In this document: piece after piece, positions 9,359 through 57,300 of the stretch | Layout: the number at the start of each line of letters is the position of its first letter | Numbering within the stretch: position 1 is the first letter of the stretch | Source: an uncultured delta proteobacterium | GTDB lineage: Bacteria > Myxococcota_A > Polyangia > Fen-1088 | Assembly: GCA_963737265.1 (NCBI GenBank) | Contig: CAVTRY010000007.1 | Location: 32,001 to 96,000, forward strand | Reading direction: 5' to 3' | Length of the DNA stretch: 64,000 bases | The notes under the pieces: generated by a model | Seen by the model: only the letters and a program-made list of their open reading frames with translations | Databases searched by the model: none | What the model was told of the DNA's origin: nothing | Program-made: the position numbers and the translations under genes

Positions 9359-9361
9359 ATT

Positions 9362-11389: not shown

Positions 11390-11391
11390 GG

Positions 11392-31520: not shown

Positions 31521-33287
31521 CTAGATCACGTCCGGCCAGGCCGGCGCGGCGGCGAAAGCGGCGTGGATAAGGCCGACGTGCGAGTACGCTTGCGGAAAAT
31601 TCCCCCACAGCGTTTTCGTCGTGGTGTCGTAGTCCTCGGAGAGAAGCCCGAGCGGCGACAAACTGCCGCGCACGTTCTCTAGCACCTCGCGCGCCTCGGT
31701 GAGGCGGCCGGTCGCGGCTAGGGCTTCGACCAGCCAGAACGTGCACAGGATGAAGGCGACTTGCGGTTTGCCGAAGCCGTCGTCGTTGCGATAGCGGTAG
31801 AGCCAACCATCGTGCCCCAGACCCTTGATAATGGCATCCACCGTGCCGCGAATTCGCGCATCGTTGGCCGGCAGAAAGCGCAAGGTCGCAATCTGAAGTA
31901 GCGAAGCGTCAAGCTCGCTACCGGCCCAGGTGCTGGCAAAGCTACCAAGCGTGGGGTTCCAGGCTTGGGCTACGATCTGATCGCGAATGCGGTCGGCGGT
32001 GGCGCGCAGCTCGGCTGCGCGGCCGGGCAGAAATCGCGTCGACACGCGCGCCATGCGATCCGCGGCGGCCCAGCACATCAGGCTGGAAAAGGTCTGCGGC
32101 TTCCATTCGGTGCGGTATTCCCAAATGCCCGCATCGGGCACGCCGACCACGCTCACCGCCTTGCGCGCCAGGCGCTCCAGCAACTGCAACACGGCGGGTG
32201 AACGCTCGGCCGCGAAGCGCTCGTCGAGGAAGATGGGCGTCAGAGCCAGCACCATTTCGCCGAACACATCGTTCTGCACGTGGCGAGCGGCACCGTTGCC
32301 GACGCGTACGGGACCGTCACCGCCAAAGCCAGGCCAGTCGGCGAGGATGCGTTCGTCCAAGTCCGAGCGGCCGTCGATGCGATAGAGCGGAGCAAGATCC
32401 AAATCCGGGTGCGCGCCCGCCACGTTGAGCAGAAAGCGCACGAAGTCTTCGCGCTCGTCGAATTGCCCGAGCAAGCGAAATGCGCCGAGCACGTAGGCGG
32501 CGTCGCGCAGCCAGCAGTAGCGATAGTCCCAGGTGCGCCCACTTCCCGGCGCCTCGGGAATCGAGGTTGTCATGGCGGCCACGATGGCGCCAGTGTCCTC
32601 GAAGCAATGCAGCTTCAGCGCCAGCGCCGAGCGAATCACTTCGCCCTGGAAGATGGGCGGAATATCGCAATGCTTGACCCAGCGCTGCCAGTAGCGTCGC
32701 GTTTGCACGAGGAAGCTCTCGGCCAGCGGCGCCAGCGCTTCTTCCACGGGAGCGCCGTAGCTGAGCACGAGGTGGCGTCTCTCCGTCAGGCTGAAGGCAC
32801 GCCCGTCGAGATACGACAGAGGCACGTCGGTGGTCAGGCGCACCTGGCTCGAAAAGCCCTCGTAGCGCACGTGATTGGACCCGAACAATTGCGCGGGCTG
32901 CCCCTTGGAAAATCCCAGGCGCGGCTCGCACAGCACGCGCACCCGCGGCGTGCCCTCGATGGGTTCGATGATGCGATAGAGTTGCGTGGGGTGGAAGACC
33001 CGGTCGTACTGCAGAAAACGCGGGGCGAAATCCGTCACGCGAAAGGCGCCGGTGGCGCTGCGAAACGTGGTCACCAGGATGTTGGTGTTATCCTCGTACG
33101 CCATCGTGCCCGGCTTGCCGTCCTCGCCACCGACGACGAACCGCCCGCCGGCCTCATGGTCGAGCAAGGTGGAAAACATCGGATCGGAATCGAAGCGCGG
33201 CAGGCAGCACCACACGATCGTGCCCGAATCCTCGACCAATGCCGAATACTGACAATTGCCGATCAGTGCCAAGCGTTCGAGCCGCAT
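31521..33287 (-). CDS. Glycoside hydrolase family 15 (trehalase-like)
   Basis: WCCLPRFDS, AAMTTSIPE, WDYRYCWLRD, GIWEYR, LDASLL, GLLSED, GNFPQAYSH. Confidence 0.92.
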   Translation of the reverse strand: MRLERLALIGNCQYSALVEDSGTIVWCCLPRFDSDPMFSTLLDHEAGGRFVVGGEDGKPGTMAYEDNTNILVTTFRSATGAFRVTDFAPRFLQYDRVFHPTQLYRIIEPIEGTPRVRVLCEPRLGFSKGQPAQLFGSNHVRYEGFSSQVRLTTDVPLSYLDGRAFSLTERRHLVLSYGAPVEEALAPLAESFLVQTRRYWQRWVKHCDIPPIFQGEVIRSALALKLHCFEDTGAIVAAMTTSIPEAPGSGRTWDYRYCWLRDAAYVLGAFRLLGQFDEREDFVRFLLNVAGAHPDLDLAPLYRIDGRSDLDERILADWPGFGGDGPVRVGNGAARHVQNDVFGEMVLALTPIFLDERFAAERSPAVLQLLERLARKAVSVVGVPDAGIWEYRTEWKPQTFSSLMCWAAADRMARVSTRFLPGRAAELRATADRIRDQIVAQAWNPTLGSFASTWAGSELDASLLQIATLRFLPANDARIRGTVDAIIKGLGHDGWLYRYRNDDGFGKPQVAFILCTFWLVEALAATGRLTEAREVLENVRGSLSPLGLLSEDYDTTTKTLWGNFPQAYSHVGLIHAAFAAAPAWPDVI

Positions 33288-33420
33288 GTCCTTGAACGTA
33301 GCAGAAAGCCCGCGTAGCATCAGTGTCAGTCGCTAACGCGTGTGCTCTTCCGCCTACCAGGGCCCAGCATACATCGCCGGTCACCTGCCCGCTCACCTCA
33401 CCCATTGCGTGGAGGCTACG

Positions 33421-35682
33421 ATGAAACGAGTAGCGCGCTTCCTGATTGTACTCCTAGCCTCGGTGGCCCTGCTGGCCTGGGCCGCGGCCACAGTGGTCGA
33501 ACGCACCACGCGCGAGTGGTTCGAAAAGGACATCATTCTGCGCGCCAAGCTGGTGGAAAGCGGCGCGCACCAGGATCTCTTGTCCCATTGGTCGTCCAAC
33601 ACCGGCGATGCGCTGGGCGGGATCCTCGCCAACATCGCCCGCGACGAAAGGATCATGGCGGCCGCGGCGTGCAACGACCGGATGGTGCTGCTGGCGCACA
33701 CCGCGCTGCTGCCCGCGCAGCTCAGTTGCGCCGCCATCGCCAAACGGATGAACGAGGCACGTGCGCGAACGGCATTCTCCAGCGAGCCGCTATCGGTTTG
33801 GGGAACGGCATGGGAGCTTCCCGGTGGGGAGGTTCACGTCAGCGCGGTGCCGCTGGTTCACAACGAAGAGGAAGTTGGTTTCTTGGTGCTCGTGCACGAC
33901 TTGTCCTTCGTCGAACGGCGCGAGGCCACGACCCGCAGCTTCCTGCTGTTCGTGTTCGGAACCCTGGCCTTGGTCGCGTCGGTGGTCACCATCGTAGCCG
34001 CGCGCCTATCGTGGCACGGATTCCGCAAAGAATTGCTCCGCTTCATCCAGGGTGGATCGCACCGCAAGGAATTTCTTCCCATCATTCGCGACGTGCGCGA
34101 GCTCGTCGAACGCATCGCCGCCGAGCGCGAGCTCGAGGGACAGAACAGCGCGTGGAGCGCCCAGCGCCTGAAGCAGACCCTGGTTCGCCATTTTCCGGGC
34201 GAGAAGGTCATCGTGCTCGCCAATCGCGAGCCCTATATTCACGAGCGCAACAAGGATGGCGTCGTCGAGATCCGGCATCCGGCGAGCGGCCTCGTCACCG
34301 CCGTCGAGCCGGTACTGCGCGCGTGCTCGGGGGTTTGGGTCGCCCATGGCAGCGGCTCGGCCGATCGGGAACCCGTCGATCGCAAGGATCGCGTGCTCGT
34401 GCCACCCGACGAGAAGTCCTATTCTCTGCGCCGGGTGTGGCTGTCCGCGGATGAGGAGCGCGGCTATTACTACGGCCTCGCCAATGAGGGTCTGTGGCCG
34501 CTGTGCCACTTGGCCCACAACCGCCCGATTTTCCGCGGCGAGGACTGGGCGGCTTACGCGGCAGTCAATCGGCGATTTGCCGAGGCGGTGTGCAAGGAAG
34601 CCGATTCCGACGACCCCGTCGTGCTGGTGCAGGATTACCATTTTGCCCTGGCCCCGCGCCTCATCCGCGAACGCCTGCCGCGTGCGACCATCATCACCTT
34701 CTGGCACATTCCCTGGCCCAACGCCGAACGCCTCGGCATCTGCCCCTGGCGCGCCGAGATTTTGGCGGGCCTGCTCGGCAGCAGCATCCTCGGCTTCCAG
34801 ACTCAGCTCTACTGCAACAACTTCCTCGACTCCGCCGATCGTTATCTCGAAGCGCGCATCGATCGCGAACAGAGCGCCGTGATTCAGCACGGCAACTCCA
34901 CCTCGGTCAAACCCTATCCCATCTCGATTGCGTGGCCGAACGAATGGGTGGCGGCGGCCCCGCCGGTCGAGGAATGCCGCCGCTCCGTGTTCGCCGATCT
35001 GGGACTGCGCAAGGACGCCATCCTGGGCGTGGGGGTGGACCGACTCGACTACACCAAGGGCATCGAAGAACGCCTGCTCACCGTGGAGCGCCTGCTCGAA
35101 CGCTTCCCGGCCTATATCGGCCGCTTCACCTTCGTACAGTTGGCGGCGCCCAGCCGCAGCCTGATCGAACCATACCGACAGCTCGACGAGGCCGTTGAAA
35201 AAACCGCGGCGCGCATCAACGAGCGTTTTGGCCGCGAAGGCTACCGGCCCATTTGCCTGCGCCGCGCACACCACGAACCACCCACGGTTTTCCGCTACTA
35301 TCGCGCTGCCGATCTTTGTTACGTCAGCAGCCTGCACGACGGCATGAATCTGGTGGCCAAGGAATTCGCGGCAGCCCGCGACGACGAGCGCGGCGTGCTG
35401 GTCCTTAGTCAGTTCACCGGCGCCGCACGCGAGTTGACCGAGGCCTTGGTGGTGAACCCCTACGATTTAGAAGAAGCCAGCTCCGCCCTTGCGATGGCCA
35501 TCGCTATGTCGCCCGAGGAGCAGCGCGACCGCATGCACGCCATGCGCGCCTATCTATCTGAGTTCAACGTATTCCGTTGGGCCGGACGAATGCTGGTGGA
35601 TGCCGCGCGCCTGCGCAAGAAGGAAAGCGTGCTCGGTCGCGTGGGCGGGGATCTCGTCAAGCTGGCAGGCCTGTCTCGGTGA
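33421..35682 (+). CDS. otsA: Trehalose-6-phosphate synthase with N-terminal TM-periplasmic-TM extension
   Basis: ANREP, ASGLV, NEGLWPLCH, VQDYH, FWHIPWP, GVDRLDYTKGI, DGMNLVAKE; GGAGG RBS before the ATG at 33421. Confidence 0.92.
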   Translation: MKRVARFLIVLLASVALLAWAAATVVERTTREWFEKDIILRAKLVESGAHQDLLSHWSSNTGDALGGILANIARDERIMAAAACNDRMVLLAHTALLPAQLSCAAIAKRMNEARARTAFSSEPLSVWGTAWELPGGEVHVSAVPLVHNEEEVGFLVLVHDLSFVERREATTRSFLLFVFGTLALVASVVTIVAARLSWHGFRKELLRFIQGGSHRKEFLPIIRDVRELVERIAAERELEGQNSAWSAQRLKQTLVRHFPGEKVIVLANREPYIHERNKDGVVEIRHPASGLVTAVEPVLRACSGVWVAHGSGSADREPVDRKDRVLVPPDEKSYSLRRVWLSADEERGYYYGLANEGLWPLCHLAHNRPIFRGEDWAAYAAVNRRFAEAVCKEADSDDPVVLVQDYHFALAPRLIRERLPRATIITFWHIPWPNAERLGICPWRAEILAGLLGSSILGFQTQLYCNNFLDSADRYLEARIDREQSAVIQHGNSTSVKPYPISIAWPNEWVAAAPPVEECRRSVFADLGLRKDAILGVGVDRLDYTKGIEERLLTVERLLERFPAYIGRFTFVQLAAPSRSLIEPYRQLDEAVEKTAARINERFGREGYRPICLRRAHHEPPTVFRYYRAADLCYVSSLHDGMNLVAKEFAAARDDERGVLVLSQFTGAARELTEALVVNPYDLEEASSALAMAIAMSPEEQRDRMHAMRAYLSEFNVFRWAGRMLVDAARLRKKESVLGRVGGDLVKLAGLSR

Positions 35683-36532: not shown

Positions 36533-37666
36533 CTAGAAAAACGTGTAGACCAGCGTCGCCTCGGTGAGGGTGTCGGCGTGGTCGGCGTACTGGTAGGCGC
36601 CGTATTGGGGCGGATAGGTCGTCCCGGCGGGCAGCGGACGCGGCGCGGGGTTCTCTGTGTATTTGAATGTGAAGCCGAGCCCCAAGCTGAGGCTCTTGTA
36701 CAGGTTGGTGCTGATTCCGATCTTCGCGTTCACGCGCGTGTCCTTGAACGGATCGACGCCATCGCTGCCATCGCTGGCGTTTCTGGCCTTGGCTTCCTTG
36801 TTGAGGTTGAACAAGCCCTCCACACCCGCGGTCATTCCGGTCTGCTGGGTCAGCGTCAGGGTTTCACCCACGAAGGCACGCGCCGAGTGGACGGCGATGC
36901 TGGGATCCGAAGTCTCGAATACAAGGTAGGAGAAGTCGTAGCCAAGCTCCGCGACCACCAGGTGCATCTTGTCTTTGAACAGCTGCCGACTATAGCCCGC
37001 TTGGCCACCGCCGAAGAACATCTTGCCGGCGACCTTGTCCCCGGCTGCCTGAGCGCTGACGTAGAGAGAGTTGTTTTCCGTGAGAAATCGATCGTAGCGA
37101 CCCTTGGTCATCCAGTTGTTGGTGCTGACCACGGTTTCCCGCCGGTAATCGGTGACAATCTGGCCGGTCGAATCTGGGATGGCAACCAAATTACTCGACT
37201 TGCCGTAGGCGTAAACGCCTTCCAGGGTCAGCTTATTCTTGCCCTCCTTGCGCGAGGCATTCACGCCAAAGGTGGCGTTGGTTGTCTGCGAGTTGCCGGA
37301 GCTGAGCAGAAAGCCACCCTTGCTCTGCGCCTTCCACTCAACCGCATTGGCCGCTGCCGCGGCGGCTTTCTCGGCGTCTAGGCGCGCGGCCTCAGCTTTG
37401 GCGGCCTCGGCCTTCGTGGCTTCCGCTTTGGCGGCCTCGGCTTTCGCCGCTTCGGCCTTGGCGGCAGCGCCGGAGTCCACCTCGGCCTTGGGCGACTCGG
37501 TCGATTCGGGCACAGCTTCGGCTTGGGCAAATGCTCGGCTGCTCACCAGCAGAAGCAGGGCCACAAGCACGCTGGTCGAGCTTGGGCAACGTCGCCTCGC
37601 CGTGGAAACGGTTTGCAGGCATTCGGGATTGTGTTCGCGTTCTTTTCTGATTTCTTCCGTGGGCAT
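36533..37666 (-). CDS. DUF481/YdiY-like outer-membrane beta-barrel protein
   Basis: Signal ending AFA-Q, SSGNSQT, GRYDRFLT, GYSRQL, amphipathic strands, terminal LVYTFF; start uncertain. Confidence 0.75.
   Translation of the reverse strand: MPTEEIRKEREHNPECLQTVSTARRRCPSSTSVLVALLLLVSSRAFAQAEAVPESTESPKAEVDSGAAAKAEAAKAEAAKAEATKAEAAKAEAARLDAEKAAAAAANAVEWKAQSKGGFLLSSGNSQTTNATFGVNASRKEGKNKLTLEGVYAYGKSSNLVAIPDSTGQIVTDYRRETVVSTNNWMTKGRYDRFLTENNSLYVSAQAAGDKVAGKMFFGGGQAGYSRQLFKDKMHLVVAELGYDFSYLVFETSDPSIAVHSARAFVGETLTLTQQTGMTAGVEGLFNLNKEAKARNASDGSDGVDPFKDTRVNAKIGISTNLYKSLSLGLGFTFKYTENPAPRPLPAGTTYPPQYGAYQYADHADTLTEATLVYTFF
37385..37465 (-). repeat. 15-nt coding tandem repeat (AKAEA)x5
   Basis: AAKAEAAKAEAAKAEATKAEAAKAEAA in the N-terminal linker of the barrel protein. 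Confidence 0.7.
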
Positions 37667-37686
37667 GACTTTGTTCGAAGCTCCTA

Positions 37687-38433
37687 TCAATCGATTTGTG
37701 ACGACGGGGCTGTTGCGGCTGTGGCCACCGTCAAGACGCAGGCTCCCTCTTGCCGCCAGACGATTCGAACGGATTGCTCGAAGGGTTGTCGAAACGTGTG
37801 GAGCGGCGTTTTGATGTACGACTCCGCGGAAAGTTTCACATCCATGGGCAACCAACCCACCGGACAGCCAAAAAACATCTTACCGACCAGGTTTACCACA
37901 ATGGAGCGCGTGTCCACCCGCAAACCCAGGCCCAGCAGCTTGAGGACGGCCTCCTTGGCGCTCCACAGGCGGGCGACAACCAGATCGCGCTCCGCTCCCG
38001 CCTGGTCCGCCATCTCCGCCTCGTCGTCGGCGAAAAACTGCCTGACCAGCGCAAGATCGCGCGACTCGATGGTTTCCACGTCCGCCCCGATGTGAACACT
38101 TGGATCCATCGACGAAGCCGCCATCCCGATGTCGCTGCGATGGGAAATCGAAATGGGATACGGCCATCCGCCCTGCCCTTCGATGAGAACGAAGGGCGCA
38201 CCCGACGGCTGGTTGAGCACGCTAATTGTGTCGTCGCGCAAGGCTGGGTCACGCGCCACTTCGCGCACGAGCTGTTTGGCCGCCGCCCGGCCGAGCAGCC
38301 ATTTCCGTCGCCGCGGCAAGAATGCCAGCCCGGCGAGATTCGCCTCCTCGCGCGGACTCAGCAATCCGGGCCACGCCTGGCCCTGCTCCAGCGACGGGTG
38401 CTCGTGGGCATGAACCAGGACATAGCGAAACAT
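37687..38433 (-). CDS. Sfp-type 4'-phosphopantetheinyl transferase
   Basis: WLLGRAAAK, GAP, SISH, IGADVE, WSAKEAVLK; ATG overlaps the synthase TGA (TGATG). Confidence 0.9.
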   Translation of the reverse strand: MFRYVLVHAHEHPSLEQGQAWPGLLSPREEANLAGLAFLPRRRKWLLGRAAAKQLVREVARDPALRDDTISVLNQPSGAPFVLIEGQGGWPYPISISHRSDIGMAASSMDPSVHIGADVETIESRDLALVRQFFADDEAEMADQAGAERDLVVARLWSAKEAVLKLLGLGLRVDTRSIVVNLVGKMFFGCPVGWLPMDVKLSAESYIKTPLHTFRQPFEQSVRIVWRQEGACVLTVATAATAPSSQID

Positions 38434-41400
38434 CAGCTGGCCACGTTGCGGAACGGGCGCGCTTCTTCCTCGGGCAGGGTGTTCGGCATGCGCGAGGTGC
38501 GGTAGCCCTCAAGCTCGACGTGGACCCTGCCTTCGCCGTCGCGCACGCGGGCGCTGAACGAAAGTCCGCCCGTGCTCGGATGGGCGGTCACCTCGGCGAC
38601 CAGCGGGCCACCGTTCATCGACGGGTCGCGCACGGTCACGCGATCGACCGCCGCGGGCAAGGCAAGCTGGCCGCTGTGGCCGATTTCCCAGACCCCGGCG
38701 GTCTGGAAGCACAGCTCAATGAGACGCGGCCCCACGACGCTGCCGTGGCTCGGGTTGGTCGTGTCGATCGGCAGATTAGCCGTCATGCAGCCAATCACCT
38801 GATTGGGCCCGGCGCTTTCCACGCGGTCGAGCACCCGGTAGGCCGGGCCGTGGAAGAACACGCGATAGATGTCGTCGCGGCCGATCTCGGGATCGGTGCG
38901 ATGGAAGGCCTGCACGCGTTGATCGTCGAGGGCCGATGGCGCAAGCACGACCACGCCCGAGAAATGAAGTTTCTCTTCGGGCTCGCGGCCGACGATGGTT
39001 TGCACCGACGACAGCGTGGTGAAGACGCGTACGCGGCCGTCGGCCGACAATACCGGCCGGGCGCGCACGATGGCGGCGCGCGGTTCGTGGCGGTAGTACT
39101 TCATGGGCGCGAGGAAGCGCAGATTTTCCAAACCCACGACGTGGTGGCTGGGAACCAGCAGCCACCCGGCTTCCGCGAATGTCTCGATTCCCATCACACC
39201 TGGAAGCACGGGAATCCCGTCGATGGCGTGATCGTAGAGGAAGGGCTCGGCCTTGGGATCGAGCTTCATCTCGGCGCTAAGGCCGTCGTGCAGATGAAAG
39301 CTAACCTGGGTAAAGGGCAAGGGCAGCGACCGGTCTTGTGCGCGTGCTTGCAAGCTGCCCTCGATGTCGAGGCCGCCATCCTTGTCCACGGGATCAAGCA
39401 AGATTCCGAGACGGCGGCCGACCACCGCCTCGCCCGAGTAGCCGGCGAGAAGAGCGTTGCGAATGACCGGCAAGCCCTCGGCTGGGTCGAGCATGTCGAT
39501 TCCGGCGCGCTTCATGATCTCGGGGATGCTTCCGCGCGTGGCCATGCCGATGCCGCCCCACGCGGTCCAGTCGAGGGCGATGCCTTGCGAGCCGGGACGC
39601 GCGGCGGCCCACCACGAGACCGTCTTGCACATGAAGTCGTTGCCAGCGCTGTAGTCGGCTTGGCCGGCGTTACCGAAGCGGCCCGCCACCGACGAGAAGA
39701 CGACAATGGCCTTCACGTCCACGTCGCGCGTGGACGCCATCAGGTTGAACAAACCGTCGGCCTTGACGCGAAAGACCAGATCGAATTCCTCGACCGGCTT
39801 GCGATCGAGCGAGCGACTGCGTTCGAGCCCGGCCGCGTGCAGGATCACGTCAACCTTGCCGCTTTGTTCGCGGATGTTTTCCACCACGGCACGGACGGCG
39901 CTTCCGTCCAGGACGTCGACCTGACGATAGAAAGCGCGGCCGCCCGCCTCTTCGACCGAGCGCAGGGCTTCGAGGATGCCCGCCTGCCGTTCGAGGTCGA
40001 AGAGTTTCTCCTCGACCTGCGCTGGCGTGGCGCGGCCCTTCTCGGCCTTCATCGTCTCATACACCTCGCGCTTGGCACCTTCGCGATCCTTGACCACCTT
40101 TTCCAGCAGGGGCCGTTCGCTCTCGGGCGGCATCTGCCGCGCGTTCGAGCAAATAGAAGGTCCCACGCGAAGCGGCCGCTAGATCACGCACGATGGCCAC
40201 GGTGATGGCGCCCGCTCCGCCGGTGACGGCGAACACCGAGTCGGCATCCAGCTTGAACGGCGCCTTGGCGTCGCTGGGAATGGCCGACAGAAGCTCGACG
40301 GCCACGCTCACGCGCAGGCTGCCCTGATAGCCGATTTCGACCGCGCCGGGATCGCGCTCGGTCTCGTCGAGCAACGCGCGCGCCACGACCTCGCTCGGCA
40401 TGTCTACCGGAAAGTCCACCGCCTTGACCATGGCCTCTGGCCGTTCGCGCTTGGCAGCTTTGACGAAACCAACGACGGCGCCGCCCAGTGGATTGCTCGC
40501 ACCGCCCGGCGCGTAGCCATGATGGCCGCCCATGCGGGTCGCGGCGATGAGGAAGGTGCCCGGATTGGCGAACGTGTCGTACAGGCCGCGCACCGCCCCG
40601 TGCAACAGCAGCACGCGATCGTGGTAGAGCTTGCGGAACTCGACCAGATCGATCTCGGCCAGCGATGGGCACGGATCGAGCGAGGCCAGAAAGTACATAC
40701 CAGCGATCGGGCCTGTGGCCGCCCACTCGCGCAGGGCGTGCTCGATCTCGGCGCGTTCGGGCCGCGCATCGATGCGCAGGACCTGGGCGCCCCGTCGTTC
40801 GAGCTCTTCGCACAGCAGCTTTCCCGCACCTTCATAGTCGGCAACCACGACGACGCGACTGCCCTTGTCCAGGCGCACCGGCGTGGCCTTGCACGCCGCC
40901 AGCGGCGGGCGCAGGACCAAGGTCGGCCGGCGAAGCACGCCGCTTTCGAAGGAATTGGCGGGCGAAACGGCCGGCGCCGCAATCGGCGCGGGCGCCGGTG
41001 CAGCCGCGGGCGTGGCTGCGACCGACGGCGCCGCGGCGGCTCCGGCGACATTCTTCTTCACGAACTCGATCACGTGGCGAAGCGTCGGGTAGTCGCGCAG
41101 CTTCAACTCCTCCTGGCGAGGGATATTGAATTCCTCGCGCACCATCGCGAACACCTCGGCTTGCTTGACCGTATCGACGCCGAGATCGGCCTCCAAATCC
41201 AGGTCCAGCTCCAGCATGTCGCTGGGATAGCCGGTCTTCTCGGCCACCATGCCCAGCACCTTTTCGACGATGGCGTCGCCCACCGTCGCTGTGGTCGTGG
41301 CCGTGGCTGTGGTCGTGGCCGTGGCCGTGGCCGTGGCCGGCCCCGTCGCAGTCGCGAGCCCCAGGCTCTGCTCGACATAGCCAATCACGTGGCGAAGCGT

Positions 41401-44400
41401 CGGATAATCGCGCAGCTTCAGGTTCTCCTGGCGCGGGATCTTGAACTCCTCGCGCACCATCGCGAACACCTCGGCCTGTTTGACCGTGTCCACGCCGAGA
41501 TCGGCTTCCAGATCGAGGTCCAGCTCCAGCATGTCACGCGGATAGCCGGTCTTTTCCGCCACCATGCCCAGCACCTTTTCGACGATGGTGTTGTCAGACG
41601 GCGTGGCGGCGACCGCGGCTGGCGTCGCCGCGGAACTAGCGGCAGGCACCGCCGCCACCACCGCTGGGGTCGGCGAAGTCACCCCGGCGCGAACAACGCC
41701 GCTCTCCTCGACATAGCGAACCACGTGGCGAAGAGTCGGGTAGTCGCGCAGCTTCAGGTTGTCCTGGCGAGGAATGGTGAACGTTTCGCGCACCATCGCG
41801 AACACCTCGGCTTGCTTGACGGTGTCGACGCCCAGGTCGGCTTCTAGATCCAGGTCAAGCTCAAGCATGTCGCGCGGGTATCCGGTCTTTTCCGCGACGA
41901 TGCCTAGCACCTTATCGAGAACATCAGCGCCGGTTGAAAGCACCGCCGCGACGGCAATCGGCGCCGTCGCGATGGGCGCCACCGCAGCAGCGGGCAAGGC
42001 CGGAACCGGCGCACCAGCCAGATCCGGCCGGCCACTTTGTACATAACCAACCACGTGACGCAGCGTCGGGTAGTCGCGCAACTTGAGGTTGTCCTGGCGA
42101 GGAATAGCAAACTCCTCGCGCACCATCGCGAATACCTCGGCCTGCTTGACGGTGTCGATGCCGAGATCCGCTTCGAGGTCGAGGTCCGGATCCAGCATGT
42201 CGCGGGGATACCCGGTCTTCTCGGCCACGATGCCGAGCACTTTGTCGAGGACGCTGCCACCCGCGAGAACAATCGGCGCTGCCGCCGTCAGTGTCGGCGC
42301 GGGCGCCGGAAGGGTCGCGGGCGCCGTTGCGGCCAAAGGCACAGTCTTCGCCACCGGTGTCACGGTGGTAGCCACATCCGCAATCGTCGCGCTTGGCCCC
42401 GTGCCAGGCAGCCATTGCGACTGCGCCGGTTCGCGCGCGGGCTGTCCGGCGTCCTTGATGCGTAGGGTTCTCTTGTGCACTTCCAGGCCGGGCGCGGCGT
42501 AGCCGGACACATCGGCCAACCAACGGTCGTAGGTTGCCTGATCGGCGATACGCTGTTCAACGCCCGGCACGCGCCGAAGCAGCGACATGGCGATCTGCGA
42601 TCCGAAGCCGGCGGCCAGGCGCAGGGCGAACTTCACCGGGTAGTGACCGCCGCGCGACAGATTGAGCGTGCCCAGCTCCGGATCGGGCTCGCGGAAATTG
42701 GGCACAGGCGGCACGATCTGCTTTTCCAGGATCTTGACCGCCACGGCGTCCTCGACGCCGACCCCCATGGGATGACCGGTGAAGCCCTTGGTGTTGGCCA
42801 CGACCAAATCATCGGCCGCGGCGCCGAAGGTCTTACGCAAAGCGAACACCTCGGCCGCCGCGCTGCCGCCGCGCGCGGGCGTGTAGGTTTCGTGCGAGAT
42901 GAAGGCCAGCTCCTTGGCCATGGCTTGGCGATGGAGACCGTGCCGACGCTCAACCGTCGACACGAGCTTCTCCATCACGCCTTCGATGTGCGAGACGTCG
43001 AGGCGCGTGCCGTGAAAGGCGCTGTTGGCGAATTCCGTGCCCAGCACCTCGACCACGCCGCGCATGCCGCGTTCGCGCACGGCATCCTCAGACTCGATGA
43101 CCAGCGCGCAAGCACCCATGCCCATCAACATGCCGTGGCGGCGGCGATCGAACGGCAGAGCGGCGCGCTCGACCACGTTCTCGGTCGTGGCGGCGCCCGT
43201 GGCCAAGAAACCCGCGCCCATCCATTCCAGCAGATTGTCCGAGGTCAAATCGTCCGCGCCAATCACGATCACGCGACGGCAACGTCCCATACGGATCCAG
43301 TCTTCGGCCATCCCCACCGCAACCGTGGTCGACGCGCAAGCCGAGTTGACCTGGGTGTTGGGGCCGCGAATACCGAGCATCTCGGCGAACTGGGCATGAC
43401 CCATGGACAGAACGCGGAACATGAAGCCGCGGTCGAATTGAAAGTCGCTCTTCGTTTCGCGGGCTTCGTAGAAGCGGCGGATTTCGCTCACCAGGTTGTC
43501 GTAGCCGGGAAAGGCCGAGGCGAAGATCACCCCGGTTTCGTCCGCCATGGCGAGCGGCAGGCGCCAGCGATCCGGCAAGTAGCTGCCGGTGGTAGTCCGC
43601 CGATAGTGGCGAACGAGCGGGATGCCGGCGTCGCGCAGAGCCTCGATGCCGGCGCCGATAGCGAGCGCGGTGGTGGTATCGAAGACGTCGCTACGCTCTC
43701 TCGACACGCCGAATTCCTCGACCAAATTGAAGGCGCCCTTGCGGCCCGCCAAGCGAATGACCTCGTCGACCGACTGGATAGGTTCCAGGCTGGGCTCGCC
43801 GACTTCGCGCTTGTGCAGACGGACGATGTTCTTGCCCAGCATGCGCTCACGCAACACCGGCGGTACGGGCTCGATGAAGGACTCGCCGGCCAAAATGCGA
43901 TCCACATTGCTGTCGTCGAAGACGCGGCGGCTTTCCCCCGGCAGGCCCAATCCCGCGCCCGAAATCACGATGGAGCCTCCTGTCCGCGAAGGCTCGGGCG
44001 CTGGTGCTCGACCTCCGCTTCCTTGGTAGAGCGACAAACCCTCGTCGAGAAAACGCGCGAACAAACGTCCCAGGCCCTCGTAGTCCGTCGGGCCGGCGGC
44101 GGCGGATGGTAAGCCGGAAGATGAACCCGAAGATGAACCAATCCGATTCGTGCTCATGGCGATGGAAGCTCCATTCGATTGCGTGGGATTGTCGCTCGGG
44201 GCCGCGTTGCGCGCAGCCGGAGCGGCGGTTTGGATCTCTCGAATCCGGGCCAGCAGTTCTGGCCTGGGAATGCCCGCGGCGTACAGGCAGCACATGGCAT
44301 CGTGGAACGAGCGCACGCCGCCCCGCTTGGGGTGATTGGTGGATAGACAAAGGACGTCGTGCTTGTCCTCAAGCACGTTCTCGGCGAGCGCTTGCAGCGC

Positions 44401-47077
44401 GCGCTTGGGGCCGACTTCGACGAAGATGCGCGCGCCCTCGCGGTAGCAGGTTTCGATGCCCTTGACGAACTGGACCGACGACGCCATCTGGTCCGCCAGG
44501 CGGCGACGGATAAGCTCCATGTCGTTTGTCGGATAGAGCTGTCCGTCGATGTTGCCAACCAGCGGGATGCTGGGCGGATTGAGCTGCATCTCGCAGATGG
44601 TTCGGTAGAGGGCATCCGCGGCGGGCGCAACCACCTTGCTGTGGAAGGCGTGCGACACGGGAATGATCTGCGCGGTCATGCCGCGATTGTTGAAGTAGTC
44701 GACCGCGCGATCCACGGCGTCGCTGGCACCGGCAATCACCGTCTGTTTCTTGCTGTTCATGTTGGCCGGCGTAAGATAGCCGCCGATCTCGGGCAAGCGC
44801 CGCACGATCTCGTCCGTGGGACCCAGCACCGAGGCCATCTTGCCCTTGTCGCCGATGGACACCGAAGCCATGGCGCGAGCACGCGCGCTTACCGCCACCA
44901 GCGCCTCGGAGAAATTGATCATGCGGGCGCAGACGGCGGCCGCCCATTCGCCCAGGCTGTGCCCCATCACCATATCGGGGACGACGCCATGCTTCGCCAG
45001 CAAGCGCATGATGGCGATGTCGGTCGCCACCATGGCGGGCTGGCAGATGGTCGTGTCCTTGAGCGCCTCTTCGGCATCTTCCATGGCTGCCGCGTCGTTC
45101 GCGTCCCGATAGACGTAGCTGGTCAGCGGGCGGCCAAGAACGGGAGCCATCGTCCGATCGGCTTCCGCGAAGGTTTCGCGTACGATGGGATCGGGAACAT
45201 CGGCCAGCATGTTGACGTACTGGGATCCCTGGCCGGGAAAGAGAAAGGCAACCTTGCCCGCCGGGCCCTGGCGAAAATGAATGCCCTTGGTTTGCAGGAT
45301 CCGCCATTTTCTGGCGTCGTTCTTGTCGAGGGCGTTCGAGCGCGCTCTCGCACTTCTTCGCCAGCTCTTCCGCCTTCTCAAAAGCGATGACCAAGCGAGT
45401 GTGGGCGCCCAGAAAATCCGCGCCGGGCGGCGTGCCGTCGGGAACCTTGCCGGCCTGGGCATCGGCCAGCGCTTGGACGAGGCGCGCACGTACCGAGCCA
45501 GCATCAGCGCCACCCACGGCAAGCATGTGGCCGAGAAGCGATGGCCGGTTGTCGGTTCCTCCGGAAACGGCGACCGAGCCTGGAGCCAAGGAGGAACCGC
45601 TGTCATAGGAGGCCGGAACCTGCGCCACTGGCTGCCGTTTGCCGATCATGCCGGGCACGTACTCCTCGACCACGACGTGAAAATTCGTACCACCAAAGCC
45701 GAAAGCCGAGACGCCGCAGCGCCGGGGCGCGAACGACGGTCGCTCCCACGGCCGCGCCTTGGTATTCACTTCGAACGGGATCTTGTCGAAGGGAATGGCC
45801 GGGCTGCGCACGTCGCAGTTGATGGACGGCGGCAGGATCTTGTGGTGGCAGGCAAGCACCGCTTTGAGCAGGCCCGCGGCGCCCGCGGCGCTCTTGAGGT
45901 GGCCGATCTGCGACTTGACCGAACCCAACGCGATTTTGTGCTTGATGGGCGTGCCTTCCGCCAACACGCTGGCGGCGCTCTCCATTTCGGACAGGTCGCC
46001 CACCTGGGTCGACGTCCCGTGGCCTTCGAGCAAGGTCATGGTCGCCGGATCGAGGCCGGCACGACGCCACGCCCGTTGGATGGCCAGGCGCTGTCCAATG
46101 GGATTAGGGGCCGTGATGCCCTTACCGCGACCGTCGCTCGCCCCGCCCACGCCGCGAATCACGGCGTAAATCTTGTCGCCGGCTTTTTCCGCGTCCTCCA
46201 GGCGCTTGCACACGAAGAAGGCACCGCCCTCGCCCATGACGAAGCCATTGGCGCCGGCGGCGTAGGGACGCGAGCCATCCGGCGACAAGGCGCCGATCTT
46301 GGAGAATTTGATGAAGGTGGTGGCACCCATGTTGCGGTCCATGCCGCCCGTCAGCGCCACTTCGAAGTGGTGATCGGCCAGGCTGTCCATGGCCGCCTGC
46401 ACGCCCGCCAAGGCCGACGCGCAGGCCGCGTCGGTGGTGAAATTGGGACCGCGCAGGTTGTAAACCGCGGCCACGCGACCGGCGACGATGTTGGTGAGCT
46501 CGCCCGGCATGGTGTCTTCGTTGGTATCCGGCCACCGTCGGTTGATCTCGGCGGAAAAGTCGGCCACCAGGGCAGCGCGTGCCGACTCGGGCAAGACCTT
46601 GAACGCGGCAGTCGCGCCGATGGCGTGCAGGTATTCGGGAAGCGCCAGACGATGCACGGTCTCATAGTGGCGCTCGCCACCCATGGCGTTGCCCACGATG
46701 ACCGCGGTCGATTCGGTGTCGAGTGGGCGGTCGGGATGGCCGGTGTCGCGCAGGGCTTCGCCTGCACACAGCAGTGCCCACTTTTGCCCTTCGTCCATGG
46801 CCATCGCCACGCGCGGTGGGATCTTAAACTTGGTCGAGTCGAACGAAACGCCGCTGACCCAGCCGCCGATTTTCGAATAGGTCTTGCCCGGCGCCTTGGG
46901 ATCGGGATCGTAGTAATCGGCGGCGCTCCAGCGCGCGGGGCTCACCTCGGTGATCGAATTCCTGCCTTCAAGCACGTTGCGCCAGAAACTCGGCGCATCG
47001 GATGAACCGGGCAAAATCGCGCCCACGCCCACAACTGCAATGGCGCGTTCGGCCGGATCCCGTGTCGAACTACTCAT
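38433..47077 (-). CDS. PfaA-like iterative type I PKS/FAS, KS-AT-KS-(ACP)4-KR-DH, about 2880 aa, interrupted by two +1 indels (about 45335 and 40144)
   Basis: KS1 DAACAS/HGTST/KSQIGH; AT PGQGSQ/GHSLG/HAFH; KS2 NSACAS/SHETYT/KGFTGH; 4 ACPs (EKTGYP..DLEADLG[IV]DT); KR VTGGAG/GQADYSAGN; DH DHAIDGIPVLPG; the three ORFs are each offset by exactly +1 nt. Confidence 0.9.
41060..42255 (-). repeat. Four tandem ACP-domain repeats separated by Ala/Pro/Thr-rich linkers
   Basis: Near-identical ~70-aa units at about 42040-42255, 41710-41925, 41370-41590 and 41060-41275; (ACGGCC)n-like linker at about 41285-41345. Confidence 0.9.
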
Positions 47078-47175
47078 CGATCAACTTCCTCCAACTTCGA
47101 TCCTGGTGACAGAACAAGGCAGTCGCAGCCCGGTTCCATACCTCGGTTTACTTCCTTGGCTAGCACGTGAGACTG

Positions 47176-48840
47176 TCACTGCGGCAACGCCGCATCTTGC
47201 TCGACGATGGCCTTGGCAACTATCTCAAGGTCGGCCATGAGCCCCTTGGCCGAGGCGTGAATGGCGCTCGACTGCAAGGCGCGCTCGAATTCCGCCATCG
47301 CCGCGTCGTCGACGGCATCCATGCCGCGAACCAGACGAACGCCACCGGCCAGGACATCGAGCGCGGTGTCGCGCGCGCAGATCCGCGACATGACCTTCAC
47401 CACGCTGGGGGCGAAAAATGGTGCGTACTTTTCCGGCGCACGACCGGCGGCGTAGCGAGCAAAATTGGCCGCGATTTCGGCGCGCGACATGAGCTCGCCA
47501 AGTTGGAAAAGCACGTGCTGATTGCGAGTGAGCCGGCCGACGCGGCAACGTTCGGTGATTTCGAGCACGGCCCTGACGGCCAGGGCGGCGACGTCGGCGC
47601 CGACCTGACTATCTTCGCGGTGCAAGGCTTCGAGCGATTCGGCCATCTTACGATAGAAGCCGCCGCGCTCTTGCAGGTGGATGCGCCATCGGTCGCGCGA
47701 CACCGTCCACTGCATGATTTCGCTCGTTCCCTCGTAAATGGTGGTGATGCGCACGTCGCGACGGATCTGCTCCACCGCGTATTCCTTGGTGTAGCCGTAG
47801 CCACCCATGGCCTGCACTGCTGCGTCCGCGGCGGCGTTGCCCTCCTCGGTGGCGAACAGCTTCACGATGGCGCCCTCGGTTTGCAGCTCGGGTTCGCCCG
47901 CGTCCAGGCGATGTGCGACTTCCTCGATGTAGGCGCGCGCGGCTTCCAGCTTGACCACGTGAGGAACGATGAGCTTGTTCATGTAGCCCTGCTTTTCAGC
48001 CAGGGGCGATCCCGCCTGCACGCGCTCGCGCGCGTAGCGGATGGCCTTGAGCATGGCCGCCACGCCGCCGCCCAAGCCAAAAGCCGCGACCATCAGGCGC
48101 GTAAATCCAAATACCGACTGCGCGTGGATAAGTCCCTTGCCCTCGACGCCGCCAAGAAGGTTTTCCTTGGGAACGAAGACGTCCTCGAAGACGACCGGCG
48201 AGGTGTTCGACGAACGAATGCCGTGCTTGTTTTCATGTTTGCCTGGAATCAGTCCCGGCGTGCCCTTTTCGACCAGGAAGAACGTTGGTCCTTCGGTAGT
48301 CGCGGCCAAGACCGAATAGAGCTGGGCGTAGCCGCCGTTCGAGATGAACTGCTTGGTGCCGCTTATCTTGTAGCCTTTGAGCTCGCCGTTCTCGATCACG
48401 CGCTCGGCCTTGGTGCGGATGGCCGACAGCTCGCTGCCAGCGAGCGGCTCGGTCACGGCGTAGGCGACAATCAACCCCTCGTCGCCTATGCGCCGAAGCC
48501 AGTGCTTGCGCTGTTCCTCGGTAGAACCCACGACGATGGGATCGGTTCCGAGAAAGATGGCCAAGAAGGCCGTCGCGACACCGAGATCCAAGCGTGCCAT
48601 TTCCTCGGACACGCGGTACACGTCGTAGGCCGAACCGCCGAGCCCGCCGAGATCCTCGGGAATGAAGAGCAAATGTAGGCCAATCTCCGGCCCGAGCAGA
48701 TCCTGGATGAGACCGAGCGGGAACTCATCCTTCTCGTCGAGCTCGAGGCGAACCTTGGCCGGCAGCTTCTGCTTGCCAAACGACCCGAGGGTGTCGAGAA
48801 GCATGTTGAGCGATTCTTTGTCGAGTCCTGCGTTCTTCAT
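47176..48840 (-). CDS. Acyl-CoA dehydrogenase family protein with C-terminal extension
   Basis: AYAVTEPLAGS, GTKQFISNG, KHGIRSSNT, QAMGGYGY, IYEGT (catalytic Glu position). Confidence 0.92.
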   Translation of the reverse strand: MKNAGLDKESLNMLLDTLGSFGKQKLPAKVRLELDEKDEFPLGLIQDLLGPEIGLHLLFIPEDLGGLGGSAYDVYRVSEEMARLDLGVATAFLAIFLGTDPIVVGSTEEQRKHWLRRIGDEGLIVAYAVTEPLAGSELSAIRTKAERVIENGELKGYKISGTKQFISNGGYAQLYSVLAATTEGPTFFLVEKGTPGLIPGKHENKHGIRSSNTSPVVFEDVFVPKENLLGGVEGKGLIHAQSVFGFTRLMVAAFGLGGGVAAMLKAIRYARERVQAGSPLAEKQGYMNKLIVPHVVKLEAARAYIEEVAHRLDAGEPELQTEGAIVKLFATEEGNAAADAAVQAMGGYGYTKEYAVEQIRRDVRITTIYEGTSEIMQWTVSRDRWRIHLQERGGFYRKMAESLEALHREDSQVGADVAALAVRAVLEITERCRVGRLTRNQHVLFQLGELMSRAEIAANFARYAAGRAPEKYAPFFAPSVVKVMSRICARDTALDVLAGGVRLVRGMDAVDDAAMAEFERALQSSAIHASAKGLMADLEIVAKAIVEQDAALPQ

Positions 48841-49111
48841 TTCGTGTCTTGTCTCCTGCACGGATCTTCGTCGAAAGGCAATCCCCGCCTGCGCGGCGGA
48901 CGATGCTGGCACAAGCTGGCCTAGAATCAAAACAGGGATCGACGGCGCAATCCGTCGACCCCTGCTTCGCGATACAACTACCTGTAATTATTAGTCACGA
49001 TCTGACGCGTCCGGATTGCAGACTTTGCCCTGGTCTAACCCGGATCCGTGCTGCGCGGGAAACTCCGCGAAATCGAAACACCACGCAGCCCCGTCGACTC
49101 GGCCTGGGCCG

Positions 49112-49537
49112 CTATTTCCAGCGGCTGTCCCCGCCTTCCTTTTCCTTTTCCTTTTCCTTCTTGGCCTTCTCCGCGGCTTTCTCCTTTTCGCGCTGAGCCT
49201 GGGCCTTTTTTGCCTCGGCCTGGGCCTTTTTATCCTTCTCTTTGATCTTTTTGAGCGCCAGCTCCGCCGCCTTTTCCTCGTCGTGTCGACGTTTGGCTGC
49301 GCACTCGGGCGGCTCGCAGTCGTTCTCGCACGCGCACTTGAGCTTCGCCTTGCTCACCCTGTTGCAGTGGCACTTGTCGTCCTTGTCGCGGTAGCAACCG
49401 CACGCATTGATCTCCGTGGCAGCGGGTGGAGGCTCGGCTTCGACCTGGGAATCGCCCTTCTTTGCTTTCGCCTGGGAAAGAGGAGCGAAGAATGTCACCA
49501 GGCCAAGCACCATCATTGTGGAAAGCAGCAGCCGCAT
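49112..49537 (-). CDS. Secreted Cys-cluster protein with Lys/Glu-rich tail
   Basis: AAGGAG RBS, signal peptide, CGC..CHC..CAC..C..C cluster, then KE-rich helix. Confidence 0.7.
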   Translation of the reverse strand: MRLLLSTMMVLGLVTFFAPLSQAKAKKGDSQVEAEPPPAATEINACGCYRDKDDKCHCNRVSKAKLKCACENDCEPPECAAKRRHDEEKAAELALKKIKEKDKKAQAEAKKAQAQREKEKAAEKAKKEKEKEKEGGDSRWK

Positions 49538-49660
49538 GGCGTTCTCCTTTGCAGGCCAATTACCACGGGTCTGGCGCCCGGTGCAATGGGCAGCGACGCC
49601 CTTTTGCATCTTGCGCCAACGAGCGGCCGGCATCATGATCCGCGTTTTGGGGAATCATCC

Positions 49661-49855
49661 ATGGGCCAAAGTCTGATGTCGCGCGACAAATCCGAAGCAA
49701 AGAAGAAAGGGCTCTTCGCTGTCTCGGCCTGGGCGGGCGCCGGTGCGCTGGTTCTCTACCACGCCCCATTCCTAGGGCTGCTGGCCGGCGGCGCGGCGGC
49801 GTACTTGACCTACCGCTGGTTCATGTTCCGCGCCAGGCGGGGAATGCGTTTCTAG
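49661..49855 (+). CDS. Small membrane protein
   Basis: MGQSLMSRDKSEAKKKG + two short hydrophobic helices + WFMFRARRGMRF; GC3-biased codons. Confidence 0.65.
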   Translation: MGQSLMSRDKSEAKKKGLFAVSAWAGAGALVLYHAPFLGLLAGGAAAYLTYRWFMFRARRGMRF

Positions 49856-54394: not shown

Positions 54395-57300
54395 TTACCC
54401 GATGGCCAACCCGAGGTGGCTGCGCAACTCGAAGTACTCTTCCGAGACACTCCACTGCAAGAGATCTCGGATCTTGTCCTTGGGATCGGCGCTGCCCACG
54501 GCAATCGGCTCGGCCAAAATCTGCTGCGCGGCGACCTCGATGTCGTTGCAAAGCAAGAACCCGGCGCGCGTCGACGTGTAGTCGACCGCAATCGCCCACT
54601 TGTGAAGATCCACGTCCGCCTTGCTTTCCAAGAAGCGACGCACGACCTCGGTGAGCTGTTCCAGGTGTTGCGGCGGCAAGAATCGCCGTAGCAGATCCAC
54701 GCGCTCGGCCACGGGCTGCTCCATCTCTCCCTTGACTGGCACCTTGGGTTGAACCAACTTGAGCGCCGCCAAGAAGAAGGCCTTGAGCTCGGAGACCTGC
54801 GGGACGATGCGCGGCCAGCGCATCACGTGATCCGAACGCAAAAGCGTCAGACGCTTGCCGAGCGCATAGGCCAGATCCTTCTCCTGCTTGCCCTGCAAGA
54901 GCGCGGCGCCCACGATCAGCGCCGGGCAAAGCTGTTGCCTGTCGCGCGCGCTGACGAATTCGATTTCGCCGGCCCAATCCTGGCGCAAGTACAGCTCGGG
55001 GCTGCTGACGCCCAAGATTTGGCTGGCGTAGACAAACACGCGGCTGAACATCAATTGGTCGGTGGCCAGATCGCGGCGATCCTTGCGCCGGATGCCGTAG
55101 TCCTTGTGTTCCTGGGCGCGGATGGCGATGACCGTCTGACTGATGTTGGCGAGCACCAGCGAAACGTAGCGATCCTCGTCGCGGTGGAAAATCTGTTTCT
55201 GCCAGTTTTCCTCGGTCAGGCGAGCCTTGACCCGCGCCAGGCCCTTGCCGCGGTACTGCTCGAAGAAGCGCAGCTCCTCGGCGTCGGCCTGCTTGAGATA
55301 GGCCAGCGTCGCGGCCACGCACCACACCTGGTCGTATTTGCCCGACTCGGCGTAAAGACGCCGCAGCGTCTTGAGCGACGGAACCATCTCCTTCGGATCC
55401 TTGGCGCGCGCGATGAGGAATCGGTATTCACGAATCGCCTTGTCGTAGCATTCCGGTCCCTGCACTTGGTACAGCTCGGCCAGGATTTGATGGCGCGAGG
55501 TATTCTCGCCTTCCAGTCGGACGCAAACCTCGAAGGCCTCGGCGGCCTCGCGGTACTGCTTGAGGCGCGAGCGATAGATCTCGCCGAGTCCGTGCCAAAG
55601 CGCGAGCTGCGTCGCCTTCTTCTCGGGCGTGACTTCTTGGCCGAGTCGTTTGATCATTTTGCGGTAGTTGCGCTGCTGGTTGGTCCAGTCCTTCTTGGCC
55701 GTCATGATCTTGTCGATGCGCTCGAACGGCTTGAGGTCGTCCGGACTCTCGTCGAGCGCCTGGTTGAACATCTCGACCGCCTCGTCGGGAGAGTGCAATT
55801 CGGTGTTGGTGATGATGCCGGCGGTTTCGAGGTACTTGGCCTTGGATTTTCCGGTTTCGAGATTGGCGAGCCGCATGAGGATCTCGACTGCCTTCTTCCA
55901 TTGCTTGGTTTCGTGCAGAAGGTCGAGCACGTCGACGAGCAGGTTGCGCGCATCGGGTTTGACCTCGATGGCTTCGAGATAGACCGCGATGGCCTTTTGG
56001 GAATTGGCCAGCTTGTCCTTGTAGATGGAGATAATCTCCTCGTGGAAGCGCAGCTTCTCTTCCACGCTCGCAAGGTGGGACAAAAGCGCACGCTTCTGCC
56101 TAATCACAGCCTCCCAATCGCCGGCCTCGGCGTACACCGCCGCCAGGGCTTCCAGCGTGGGCCGATGACCCGGTTGGATTTCGAGCGCTTTTTCGAACAT
56201 GTTGATGGCCTTCGCGCGCTCGCCCACCTTCATCTTGATGTTGCCGATGCGGTGGAATATCTCGACGATTTGATCGTCGCTCTGCGACTCGCGATGCTGA
56301 ACCATCACGGTCTGGTACAGTTTGAAAGCATCGTCCCACTGCTGGCGGCGGTAGAGCAGATCGGCCCGGTCAACCAGCGTCGGCAAATGGGTCGGATCCA
56401 GCTCGTAAGCGTGGCGGTAACACTTGAGCGCCTTCTCCTGATCGCCCAGCCTGTCAGCCGCTTTGGCCAGCCGGTAGTAAAGGACGTGAAGCTCTTTGTT
56501 GGCGCGCCGGTCGGTCTTGCGCGCCAGCATCTCGAGCACCGGAATGAGCGGGACCCACTCTTCGCGGCGGTAGTAGATCTCGGCCAGCGGCGAGGCGGCT
56601 TCGACGTGCTCGGGATCGAATTCGAGGGTCCGGGCGAAGAGATCCTTGGCCTTCTGCTCGTCGCCGAGCTCGGTCTGGTACAGCTTGCCCGCCTCAAAAA
56701 GCAGTCGAGTCTTTTCGAGGAGGTTCTGCGTGTGGGCCTCGGCCCGCACCATCATCTGAGCCGCCTTGAGCGAGTCGCCTCGGCGTTTGTAGAGGTTGAC
56801 CAGCGACAACATGCTCGGCACGTGGGTGGCGTCGATGCTGAGCGCATCGGACAGCCGTTCCTCGGCCGATTCCGGCATCTGCATGTGCTCGTCGAAGATC
56901 TTGCCCAGCCGGAAGCTCAAGTCGACCTTCTCCTTGGCTTCCACCACATGCACCAACCGCTCCATGATCTCGACCGCGCGATCCCATTGCTCGGTCTGCT
57001 CGTAGATGCGCGAGAGGCCCTTGAGCGCCTCCGTGTGATCGGGATCGAAGGTGAGGATGTCGTTGTATGCCTCGGCGGCGCGATCGGGATCGCGCAGCTC
57101 CTCTTCGAAGAGCTGACCCAAGGCCAGGTAAACCGCCGTGCGCTCCTGCACTTCGGTCTCGACTAGGATGTGGCGACGGTAGATGTCCACCAAGGCATCC
57201 CAATTGCGATCCCCGCGGTACAAGCGTTCAATGTCGCGATAGACGCGCAGTTGATGCTCATCGACTTCCAGCACGTGCTGCAAGCACTCGATGGCCCGAT

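Follow-up and report, generated by a model that had tools for sequence, protein, structure and literature searches.

A Type R secondary-lipid synthase locus with threonine-bearing carrier domains and an acyl-CoA dehydrogenase partner in an uncultured member of the Polyangia

The stretch analysed here, called the window, comprises 64,000 nucleotides of contig CAVTRY010000007.1 (positions 32,001 to 96,000; G000:C7:32001-96000) from an uncultured delta proteobacterium of the Polyangia, whose genome is assembled to 6.55 Mb in 25 contigs. It harbors three genes, for an acyl-CoA dehydrogenase (ACAD), an iterative synthase of about 2880 residues and a 4'-phosphopantetheinyl transferase (PPTase). Its domain layout assigns this locus to the Type R family of secondary-lipid synthases, which is widespread but uncharacterised and whose architecture was already known. 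The window alone adds a new, probably intact member to that family. New here are three properties of the family: a near-obligate ACAD partner, a catalytically complete FabF-like second ketosynthase and, the most notable, a universal replacement of Ser by Thr in the acyl carrier protein (ACP) domains. No product has been assigned to Type R clusters since they were first catalogued in 2011, and they occur in hundreds of species of several phyla, many from soil, peat and similar metagenomes.

The synthase, its two ketosynthases and its family

The three genes are co-directional on the minus strand, in the 5'-3' order ACAD, synthase, PPTase, and the GC content of the region is about 65%. The ACAD and synthase genes are 98 nt apart. 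The ATG of the PPTase gene overlaps the synthase stop codon (TGATG), indicating translational coupling. A sequence-only reading of the window had proposed three co-oriented genes, the middle one encoding a protein of about 2880 residues with the order ketosynthase, acyltransferase, ketosynthase, four ACPs, ketoreductase and dehydratase (KS1-AT-KS2-ACP4-KR-DH). Pfam and NCBIfam searches confirmed the genes, their positions and the domain order, and its HAFH motif in the AT, its four ACPs and its coupled PPTase were all correct. The features are given below by window position.

47176-48840, minus: ACAD, 554 residues from the ATG at 48840; alternative TTG start at 48930
47716-47739, minus: catalytic-Glu motif of the ACAD, IYEGTSEI
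38433-47077, minus: whole synthase, about 2880 residues when joined (581+1730+569)
45336-47077, minus: synthase piece 1, frame a; KS1 and the KS-AT linker
46412-46432, minus: Cys motif of KS1 (DAACASA); His motifs at 46007-46027 and 45890-45910
40145-45334, minus: synthase piece 2, frame b; AT, KS2, four ACPs and the N-terminal part of KR
44947-44964, minus: AT motif GHSLGE; HAFH at 44641-44652
about 42490-43989, minus: KS2; Cys motif at 43327-43347, His motifs at 42877-42897 and 42763-42783
about 41047-42264, minus: four ACPs (PP-binding domains)
42151-42153 (ACC), 41821-41823 (ACC), 41485-41487 (ACG) and 41170-41172 (ACG), minus: Thr codons of ACP1 to ACP4
38433-40143, minus: synthase piece 3, frame c; C-terminal part of KR and a polyketide synthase (PKS)-type DH
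39639-39653, minus: KR motif YSAGN
39201-39230, minus: DH motif HAIDGIPVLP
37687-38433, minus: Sfp-type PPTase, 248 residues (PF01648, 1.4e-12)

KS1 matches PF00109 (8.5e-60) and PF02801 (1.4e-34), and KS2 matches PF00109 (1.7e-15) and NCBIfam fabF (4.7e-37). The AT (PF00698, 3.7e-38) is of the malonyl type, with GHSLGE and HAFH. The KR (Pfam, 4.9e-25) is followed by a PS-DH domain (8.3e-15) with the motif HxxxGxxxxP, and the PPTase carries SGAP, ISISH, GADVE and WSAKEA. The PfaA model TIGR02813 matches all three synthase pieces (402.1, 463.9 and 128.4 bits), each below the cut-off of 1010.1, and no protein in the whole genome matches it above the cut-off.

KS1 and KS2 both carry Cys-His-His. 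The Cys of KS2 lies in NSACAST, and Cys218, His366 and His406 of this domain are invariant in all seven aligned sequences. A quick maximum-likelihood tree covering 30 KS-type sequences places KS1 as sister to the PfaA KS (SH-aLRT 82), inside a clade with the PfaC KS and the PfaC chain-length factor (CLF) domain (99). KS2 lies outside that clade. It forms a clade of its own (100) on a long branch and groups with the FabF-type enzymes of the genome (99), a placement that is uncertain because of possible long-branch attraction. The NCBIfam fabF match agrees with the tree, as does a PDB sequence search with KS2, in which the top matches were FabF-type enzymes; both support the placement with FabF. 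The same groupings recur in the KS1 and KS2 subtrees, and thus the two domains appear to have evolved together. A CLF is a KS-like domain without the active-site Cys. Since KS2 keeps Cys-His-His and groups with FabF, the label CLF is doubtful for it, and the domain appears to be a functional ketosynthase.

The 'Type R' secondary lipid cluster was described with one pfaA homologue of the layout KS-MAT-CLF-ACP(3-6)-KR and a PPTase gene downstream (Shulse & Allen 2011, PLoS One 6:e20146, PMC3098273). As far as the accessible text of that paper goes, the hosts are Ca. Koribacter, Ca. Solibacter, Elusimicrobium and Roseiflexus, the product is uncharacterised, an acetyl-CoA carboxylase (ACC) gene lies between the synthase and PPTase genes in Koribacter, and the PPTase motifs are P1a, x(G/D)xP, and P1b', hShxH. 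The window synthase fits this layout, with KS1, AT, KS2, four ACPs and KR, plus a DH. The window PPTase fits as well, SGAP corresponding to P1a and ISISH to P1b'. The layout recurs in a locus of Roseiflexus sp. (L042; L and G numbers are our handles for loci and genomes), whose KS1 and KS2 show 64-65% identity and group in the corresponding clades of a tree built without the reference sequences of the paper. Shared with the 2011 description are the single pfaA homologue, the second KS-like domain, the PPTase, the lack of pfaB, pfaC and pfaD, and the ACC genes of some members. That description names the second domain CLF, whereas KS2 of the window family has the complete residues and the FabF affinity given above. 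Its main text mentions a dehydrogenase 0 times, in contrast to the nearly universal ACAD of the loci examined here, and no discussion of a Thr at the ACP attachment site was found in its accessible part.

The sequence-only reading had called the system a stand-alone synthase of unknown product. This description survives in that pfaBCD are missing and no characterised product was found; it does not as a claim of novelty, because Type R was catalogued in 2011 (PMC3098273). The literature search, which left most subscription journals outside its coverage, found no later paper on Type R function. Nor did the literature searched yield a paper linking pfaA, acyl-CoA dehydrogenase and Chloroflexi, or one combining PUFA (polyunsaturated fatty acid) synthase, ACAD, gene cluster and uncharacterized ketosynthase. 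Papers on pfaA and Solibacter added nothing functional, and those on hglE-KS with ACAD are, in their accessible portions, genome surveys.

Two better known systems are related. With canonical PfaABCD(E) the window shares the sister relation of KS1 to the PfaA KS and, in the order of PfaA, the tandem ACPs, the KR and the PKS-type DH. It differs in lacking PfaB, PfaC (KS-CLF-FabA-type DH2) and an adjacent PfaD, and its synthase differs from PfaA by an additional internal FabF-like KS and by Thr instead of Ser in the ACPs. The enediyne PKS, PKSE, has the layout KS-AT-ACP-KR-DH-PPTase, with the PPTase at the C-terminus. It is likewise an iterative, Pfa-related KS-AT-ACP-KR-DH enzyme without an enoyl reductase (ER) and with its own PPTase, and in one relative (G040) the PPTase is fused to the C-terminus of the synthase, as in PKSE. 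Type R differs from PKSE by the second KS, by several ACPs, and by an ACAD instead of the PKSE thioesterase and accessory genes. No enediyne cassette genes turned up within the window when its large open reading frames (ORFs) were scanned with Pfam.

An alignment of KS2 from seven genomes (A1) was searched against a species-level genome collection and returned at least 588 relatives. Loci were compared by tblastn with the window proteins for the best 80 of these. They belong to Myxococcota, Chloroflexota (Roseiflexus, Kouleothrix, Caldilineaceae, Anaerolineae), Acidobacteriota, Actinomycetota (including Paractinoplanes durhamensis and Mycobacterium spp.) and Gemmatimonadales. Near the host the synthase is patchy: it is present in 12/12 genus-mates and in five of 16 other genomes of the class, and in other genera of the family it was found in 0/12, with matches at the FabF level only. 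A second KS-AT megasynthase, with an open frame of 1662 residues, lies elsewhere in the host genome (G000:C16:370209-372278).

Threonine at the carrier attachment site

All four window ACPs read LG(I/V)DTVKQAE. In HMMER alignments the Thr of this motif aligns with the pantetheinylated Ser of DLGADSL-type motifs in solved carrier proteins, and the Ser conserved in the PP-binding carrier family, (D/H)S(L/I), is missing from the window, where four of four domains have Thr. The replacement extends to the relatives. With a regular expression left open at that position, 232/232 ACPs found in 72 of the 80 related loci have Thr, as does every ACP of seven further relatives. In canonical PfaA loci from the same phylum, a regular expression allowing Ser or Thr found only Ser, in 62/62 ACPs from 28/30 loci. 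Across 199 distinct ACP domains, Ser does not reach 30% and Cys does not reach 10% in any column.

The simplest reading of these sequences is that the dedicated, ever-present PPTase, detectable in 45/55 loci that reach the KR-DH end, would modify Thr. One experiment weighs against it. The S36T variant of E. coli ACP is reported, in the accessible text, not to be modifiable by 4'-phosphopantetheine (PMC3340395), and by textbook rules the Thr-bearing ACPs would therefore be inactive. No report of a Thr attachment site for pantetheine was found in the literature searched, most subscription journals lying outside its coverage. If Thr is pantetheinylated, this would be a post-translational chemistry not described before, served by a PPTase specialised for it.

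The acyl-CoA dehydrogenase and the source of enoyl reduction

The ACAD consists of the Pfam N, M and C domains (E 7e-15, 1e-18 and 3e-34) followed by a C-terminal extension of about 170 residues. By sequence, its core is closest to medium-chain (MCAD-type) chains (PDB search, E 3e-61). An AF2 model built on 44 orthologues reached a pLDDT of 90.7, and the best matches to its full-length fold are two-domain ACADs, Thermus 2z1q, B. anthracis 3owa and the human very-long-chain enzyme, VLCAD (TMq 0.77-0.81). Judged by sequence and model, the ACAD is of VLCAD-type architecture, a core with a helical C-terminal domain. With human VLCAD/ACAD9, 2z1q and 3owa it has in common the ACAD core, the Glu of YEGT and the C-terminal helical domain. 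It is only 23-28% identical to the solved chains and differs from them by a family-specific, invariant motif in its C-terminal domain, RLTRNQH, and by its fixed partnership with a megasynthase.

Synteny of the ACAD was proposed with the sequence-only reading as a check, and it was borne out. Six of the 80 loci are cut off upstream. Among the remaining 74, tblastn placed an ACAD core with the C-terminal extension directly upstream of the synthase and on the same strand in 72, the exceptions being L093 and L101. These loci span Myxococcota, Chloroflexota, Acidobacteriota, Actinomycetota and Gemmatimonadales, and identity to the window ACAD (56-93%) parallels that of KS1 (53-86%). Pfam scans found the ACAD adjoining the synthase in G010, G037, G027 and G039; G040 has the two genes side by side in divergent orientation. 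The ACAD is thus an almost invariable, near-obligate and family-specific partner of the Type R synthase.

One of the exceptions, L101, lies on a contig labelled as a Heimdallarchaeota metagenome-assembled genome. Its segment 5517-13295 holds a divergent synthase (KS1 45% identity) with Thr-type ACPs and a PPTase, and no ACAD is present within 5.5 kb upstream. Transfer or mis-binning may account for the archaeal label.

Clustering of 788 ORFs from the 80 loci shows what else travels with the synthase. Only the synthase, ACAD, ACC subunits, PPTase, biotin carboxyl carrier protein (BCCP) and electron transfer flavoprotein (ETF)/EtfD form recurrent clusters, and no thioesterase, acyltransferase or ligase recurs in four or more loci. 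ACC genes follow downstream in 38/55 loci that reach the 3' end. They encode three subunits in the Chloroflexota loci checked, and a single eukaryote-like chain of about 1850-1900 residues (BC-BCCP-central-CT) in Actinomycetota, Acidobacteriota and some Myxococcota. Examples of ACC genes are found at L099:14882-20425, L026:593-6295 and L063:16338-20141. ETF alpha and beta genes lie directly upstream of the ACAD in seven loci, four of them with an EtfD-like CCG/4Fe-4S oxidoreductase. An eighth locus has EtfD alone. The ACC and ETF modules are absent from the window and its closest clade. In reductive ACAD-ETF pairs such as butyryl-CoA dehydrogenase with EtfAB, the ETF genes are likewise adjacent, as in these Type R relatives.

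The sequence-only reading had noted the lack of an ER, a thioesterase and pfaBCD. This holds within the 64-kb window, where Pfam scans found no ER, thioesterase, PfaB, PfaC or PfaD among the other large ORFs. It does not hold for the contig, which carries a PfaD-family ER about 150 kb from the locus (G000:C7:229410-230738; 620 bits, above the cut-off).

As neither an ER domain nor an ER gene accompanies the synthase, the only conserved candidate for the reductase is the ACAD. We tentatively favor, as close to an even call, a self-contained iterative synthase for which an ETF-linked ACAD supplies the missing enoyl reduction. The PPTase would load 4'-phosphopantetheine onto the ACPs, here necessarily on Thr, and the AT would load malonyl units. 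KS1 and KS2 would share the iterative elongation, and the KR and DH would turn each beta-keto group into a trans-2-enoyl thioester. The ACAD, reduced via ETF and, where EtfD is present, the quinone pool, would then act in trans as enoyl reductase in all or some cycles, and a long acyl chain, for the most part saturated, would result. The ACC genes alongside suggest a high demand for malonyl-CoA, as is typical when lipid is made in bulk. No thioesterase or acyltransferase that would point to the mode of chain release or to the final lipid is conserved nearby in the 80 loci. If the ACAD does reduce enoyl-ACP, it would define a new class of enoyl reductase.

Several points weigh against a reductive ACAD. 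ACAD, ETF and EtfD together form the textbook oxidative module of beta-oxidation, and we know of no ACAD that acts as an enoyl-ACP reductase. ETF and/or EtfD genes are adjacent in only 8/74 loci, the window not among them. Enoyl reduction could also be supplied in trans, either by the orphan PfaD-family ER or from a type II fatty acid synthase (FAS), to which the FabF-like KS genes of the genome point as a possible ER source.

An alternative, which we regard as a serious though somewhat unlikely one, dispenses with enoyl reduction. The synthase would then make a polyene or a chain reduced only in part (hydroxy/enoyl), and the ACAD would be an ETF-linked alpha,beta-desaturase of a saturated starter or a released acyl-CoA. 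The ordinary catalytic Glu motif of the ACAD is consistent with this role, the nearest solved relatives include the oxidative MCAD and VLCAD enzymes, and the adjacent ETF and EtfD genes are the usual route of an ACAD to the quinone pool. In addition, ER-less KS-AT-ACP-KR-DH synthases such as the enediyne PKSE are generally known to make polyenes. However, KR and DH without an ER leave no saturated alpha-beta bond, so that only a starter or an imported chain would suit the ACAD, and the loci have neither a loading domain nor an acyl-CoA ligase in common. The dedicated ACC in 38/55 loci also suggests a bulk lipid, not a trace pigment.

That an unlinked reductase, the orphan PfaD-family ER or that of FAS II, performs the reduction while the ACAD edits, recycles or degrades the product seems quite unlikely. 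The strong match on the same contig speaks for it, as does the presence of the PfaD-family ER in 11/12 genus-mates. However, the gene is found in 0/5 of the more distant carriers of the synthase (class-mates) and in 2/12 genera of the same family without the synthase. Its flanks (L009, L029) are MFS, Obg, TPR and BadF/DUF2229 genes with no PKS adjoining, and the 72/74 synteny of the ACAD would be left unexplained. On its unrelated neighbors and this distribution, the orphan ER was rejected as an obligate partner.

Carried to its full extent, the reductive ACAD reading combined with Thr modification would make Type R a new kind of self-contained type I FAS with two features lacking precedent, Thr-borne 4'-phosphopantetheine attached by the co-encoded PPTase and a reductive ACAD-family ER fed by ETF and, via EtfD, by menaquinol. 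We consider this combined proposal unlikely.

Frame breaks and surroundings of the locus

The assembly splits the synthase over three frames (ORFs 44369-47077, 40057-45606 and 38433-40166). Comparison with three intact orthologues locates the breaks.

45335, minus: frame break 1, one extra base inside GCTCGAACGC
40144, minus: frame break 2, one extra base, again inside GCTCGAACGC

Both insertions thus fall in the identical 10-mer GCTCGAACGC, where the orthologues read CTCGA(C/T)GC or ATCGA(A/G)GCC, encoding Leu/Ile-Asp/Glu-Ala. An orthologue of the synthase, 84-88% identical in KS2, is present in all 12 genus-mates searched, and four of them (G004, G008, G009 and G010) have intact single frames of 2849-2965 residues. 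Logan contigs of four public runs were also placed on the region. One contig of run X1 (39914-40310) equals the window except that the base at 40144 is missing, and contigs from related populations in runs X2 and X5 lack both extra bases.

Because genus-mates have intact orthologues and public contigs lack the extra bases, both breaks most likely arose as consensus errors, and the organism itself probably has an intact gene. The recurrence of the same 10-mer looks like a context-specific consensus error. Two points count against this view: the depth of the X1 contig is only 2.7, weak support when taken alone, and 45335 is without X1 cover, so the near-identical population is silent on the first break. 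The alternative that the synthase is a real pseudogene with two frameshifts in a decaying operon agrees with the two 1-nt insertions in the assembly and with shortened open frames of 1643-2213 residues in several genus-mates, yet we judge it very unlikely, as the X1 contig and the relatives lack the bases, two independent mutations account for one shared 10-mer less well than a systematic consensus error does, the catalytic motifs are all intact, and third-position GC is high in all three pieces. The 9-mer CTCGAACGC was considered as a genome-wide frameshift hotspot and rejected: one-base deletion 'repaired' 12/359 of its sites versus 33/1000 random sites, and the same count for five control motifs was 7-19.

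Upstream of the ACAD lies one further small ORF.

49112-49654, minus: small ORF immediately upstream of the ACAD; no known family, no Pfam match

Its tblastn matches of 49-78% identity occupy the same relative position in seven loci (L022, L023, L030-L034). The ORF is conserved in the closest clade only, and its membership in the operon is uncertain. A plus-strand ORF at 49016-49855 overlaps it and also yields matches; it may be an antisense shadow. Promoter-like sites in 37300-49400 number 0, with a mean of 1.4 in shuffles, and terminator-like sites 11 versus 10.4 in shuffles; neither gives a signal.

The flanks of the window contain genes for RNase Y, a giant TPR protein, a DUF481 outer-membrane protein, trehalose-related enzymes and housekeeping functions. 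The DUF481 gene (36533-37855) was rejected as part of the system, with no homologue in any of 83 related loci. Two TPR ORFs on the minus strand, one of 2566 residues (54395-62092) and one of 811 residues running past the window end (61566-63998), overlap by about 500 nt in different frames, which may reflect a frame error in one giant TPR gene. The minus strand at 6509-14549 encodes two DUF2079 membrane proteins and a family-2 glycosyltransferase. At 31521-35682 a GH15/trehalase-like gene stands back to back with a GT20 (OtsA-like) gene, the latter with an N-terminal extension of about 290 residues.

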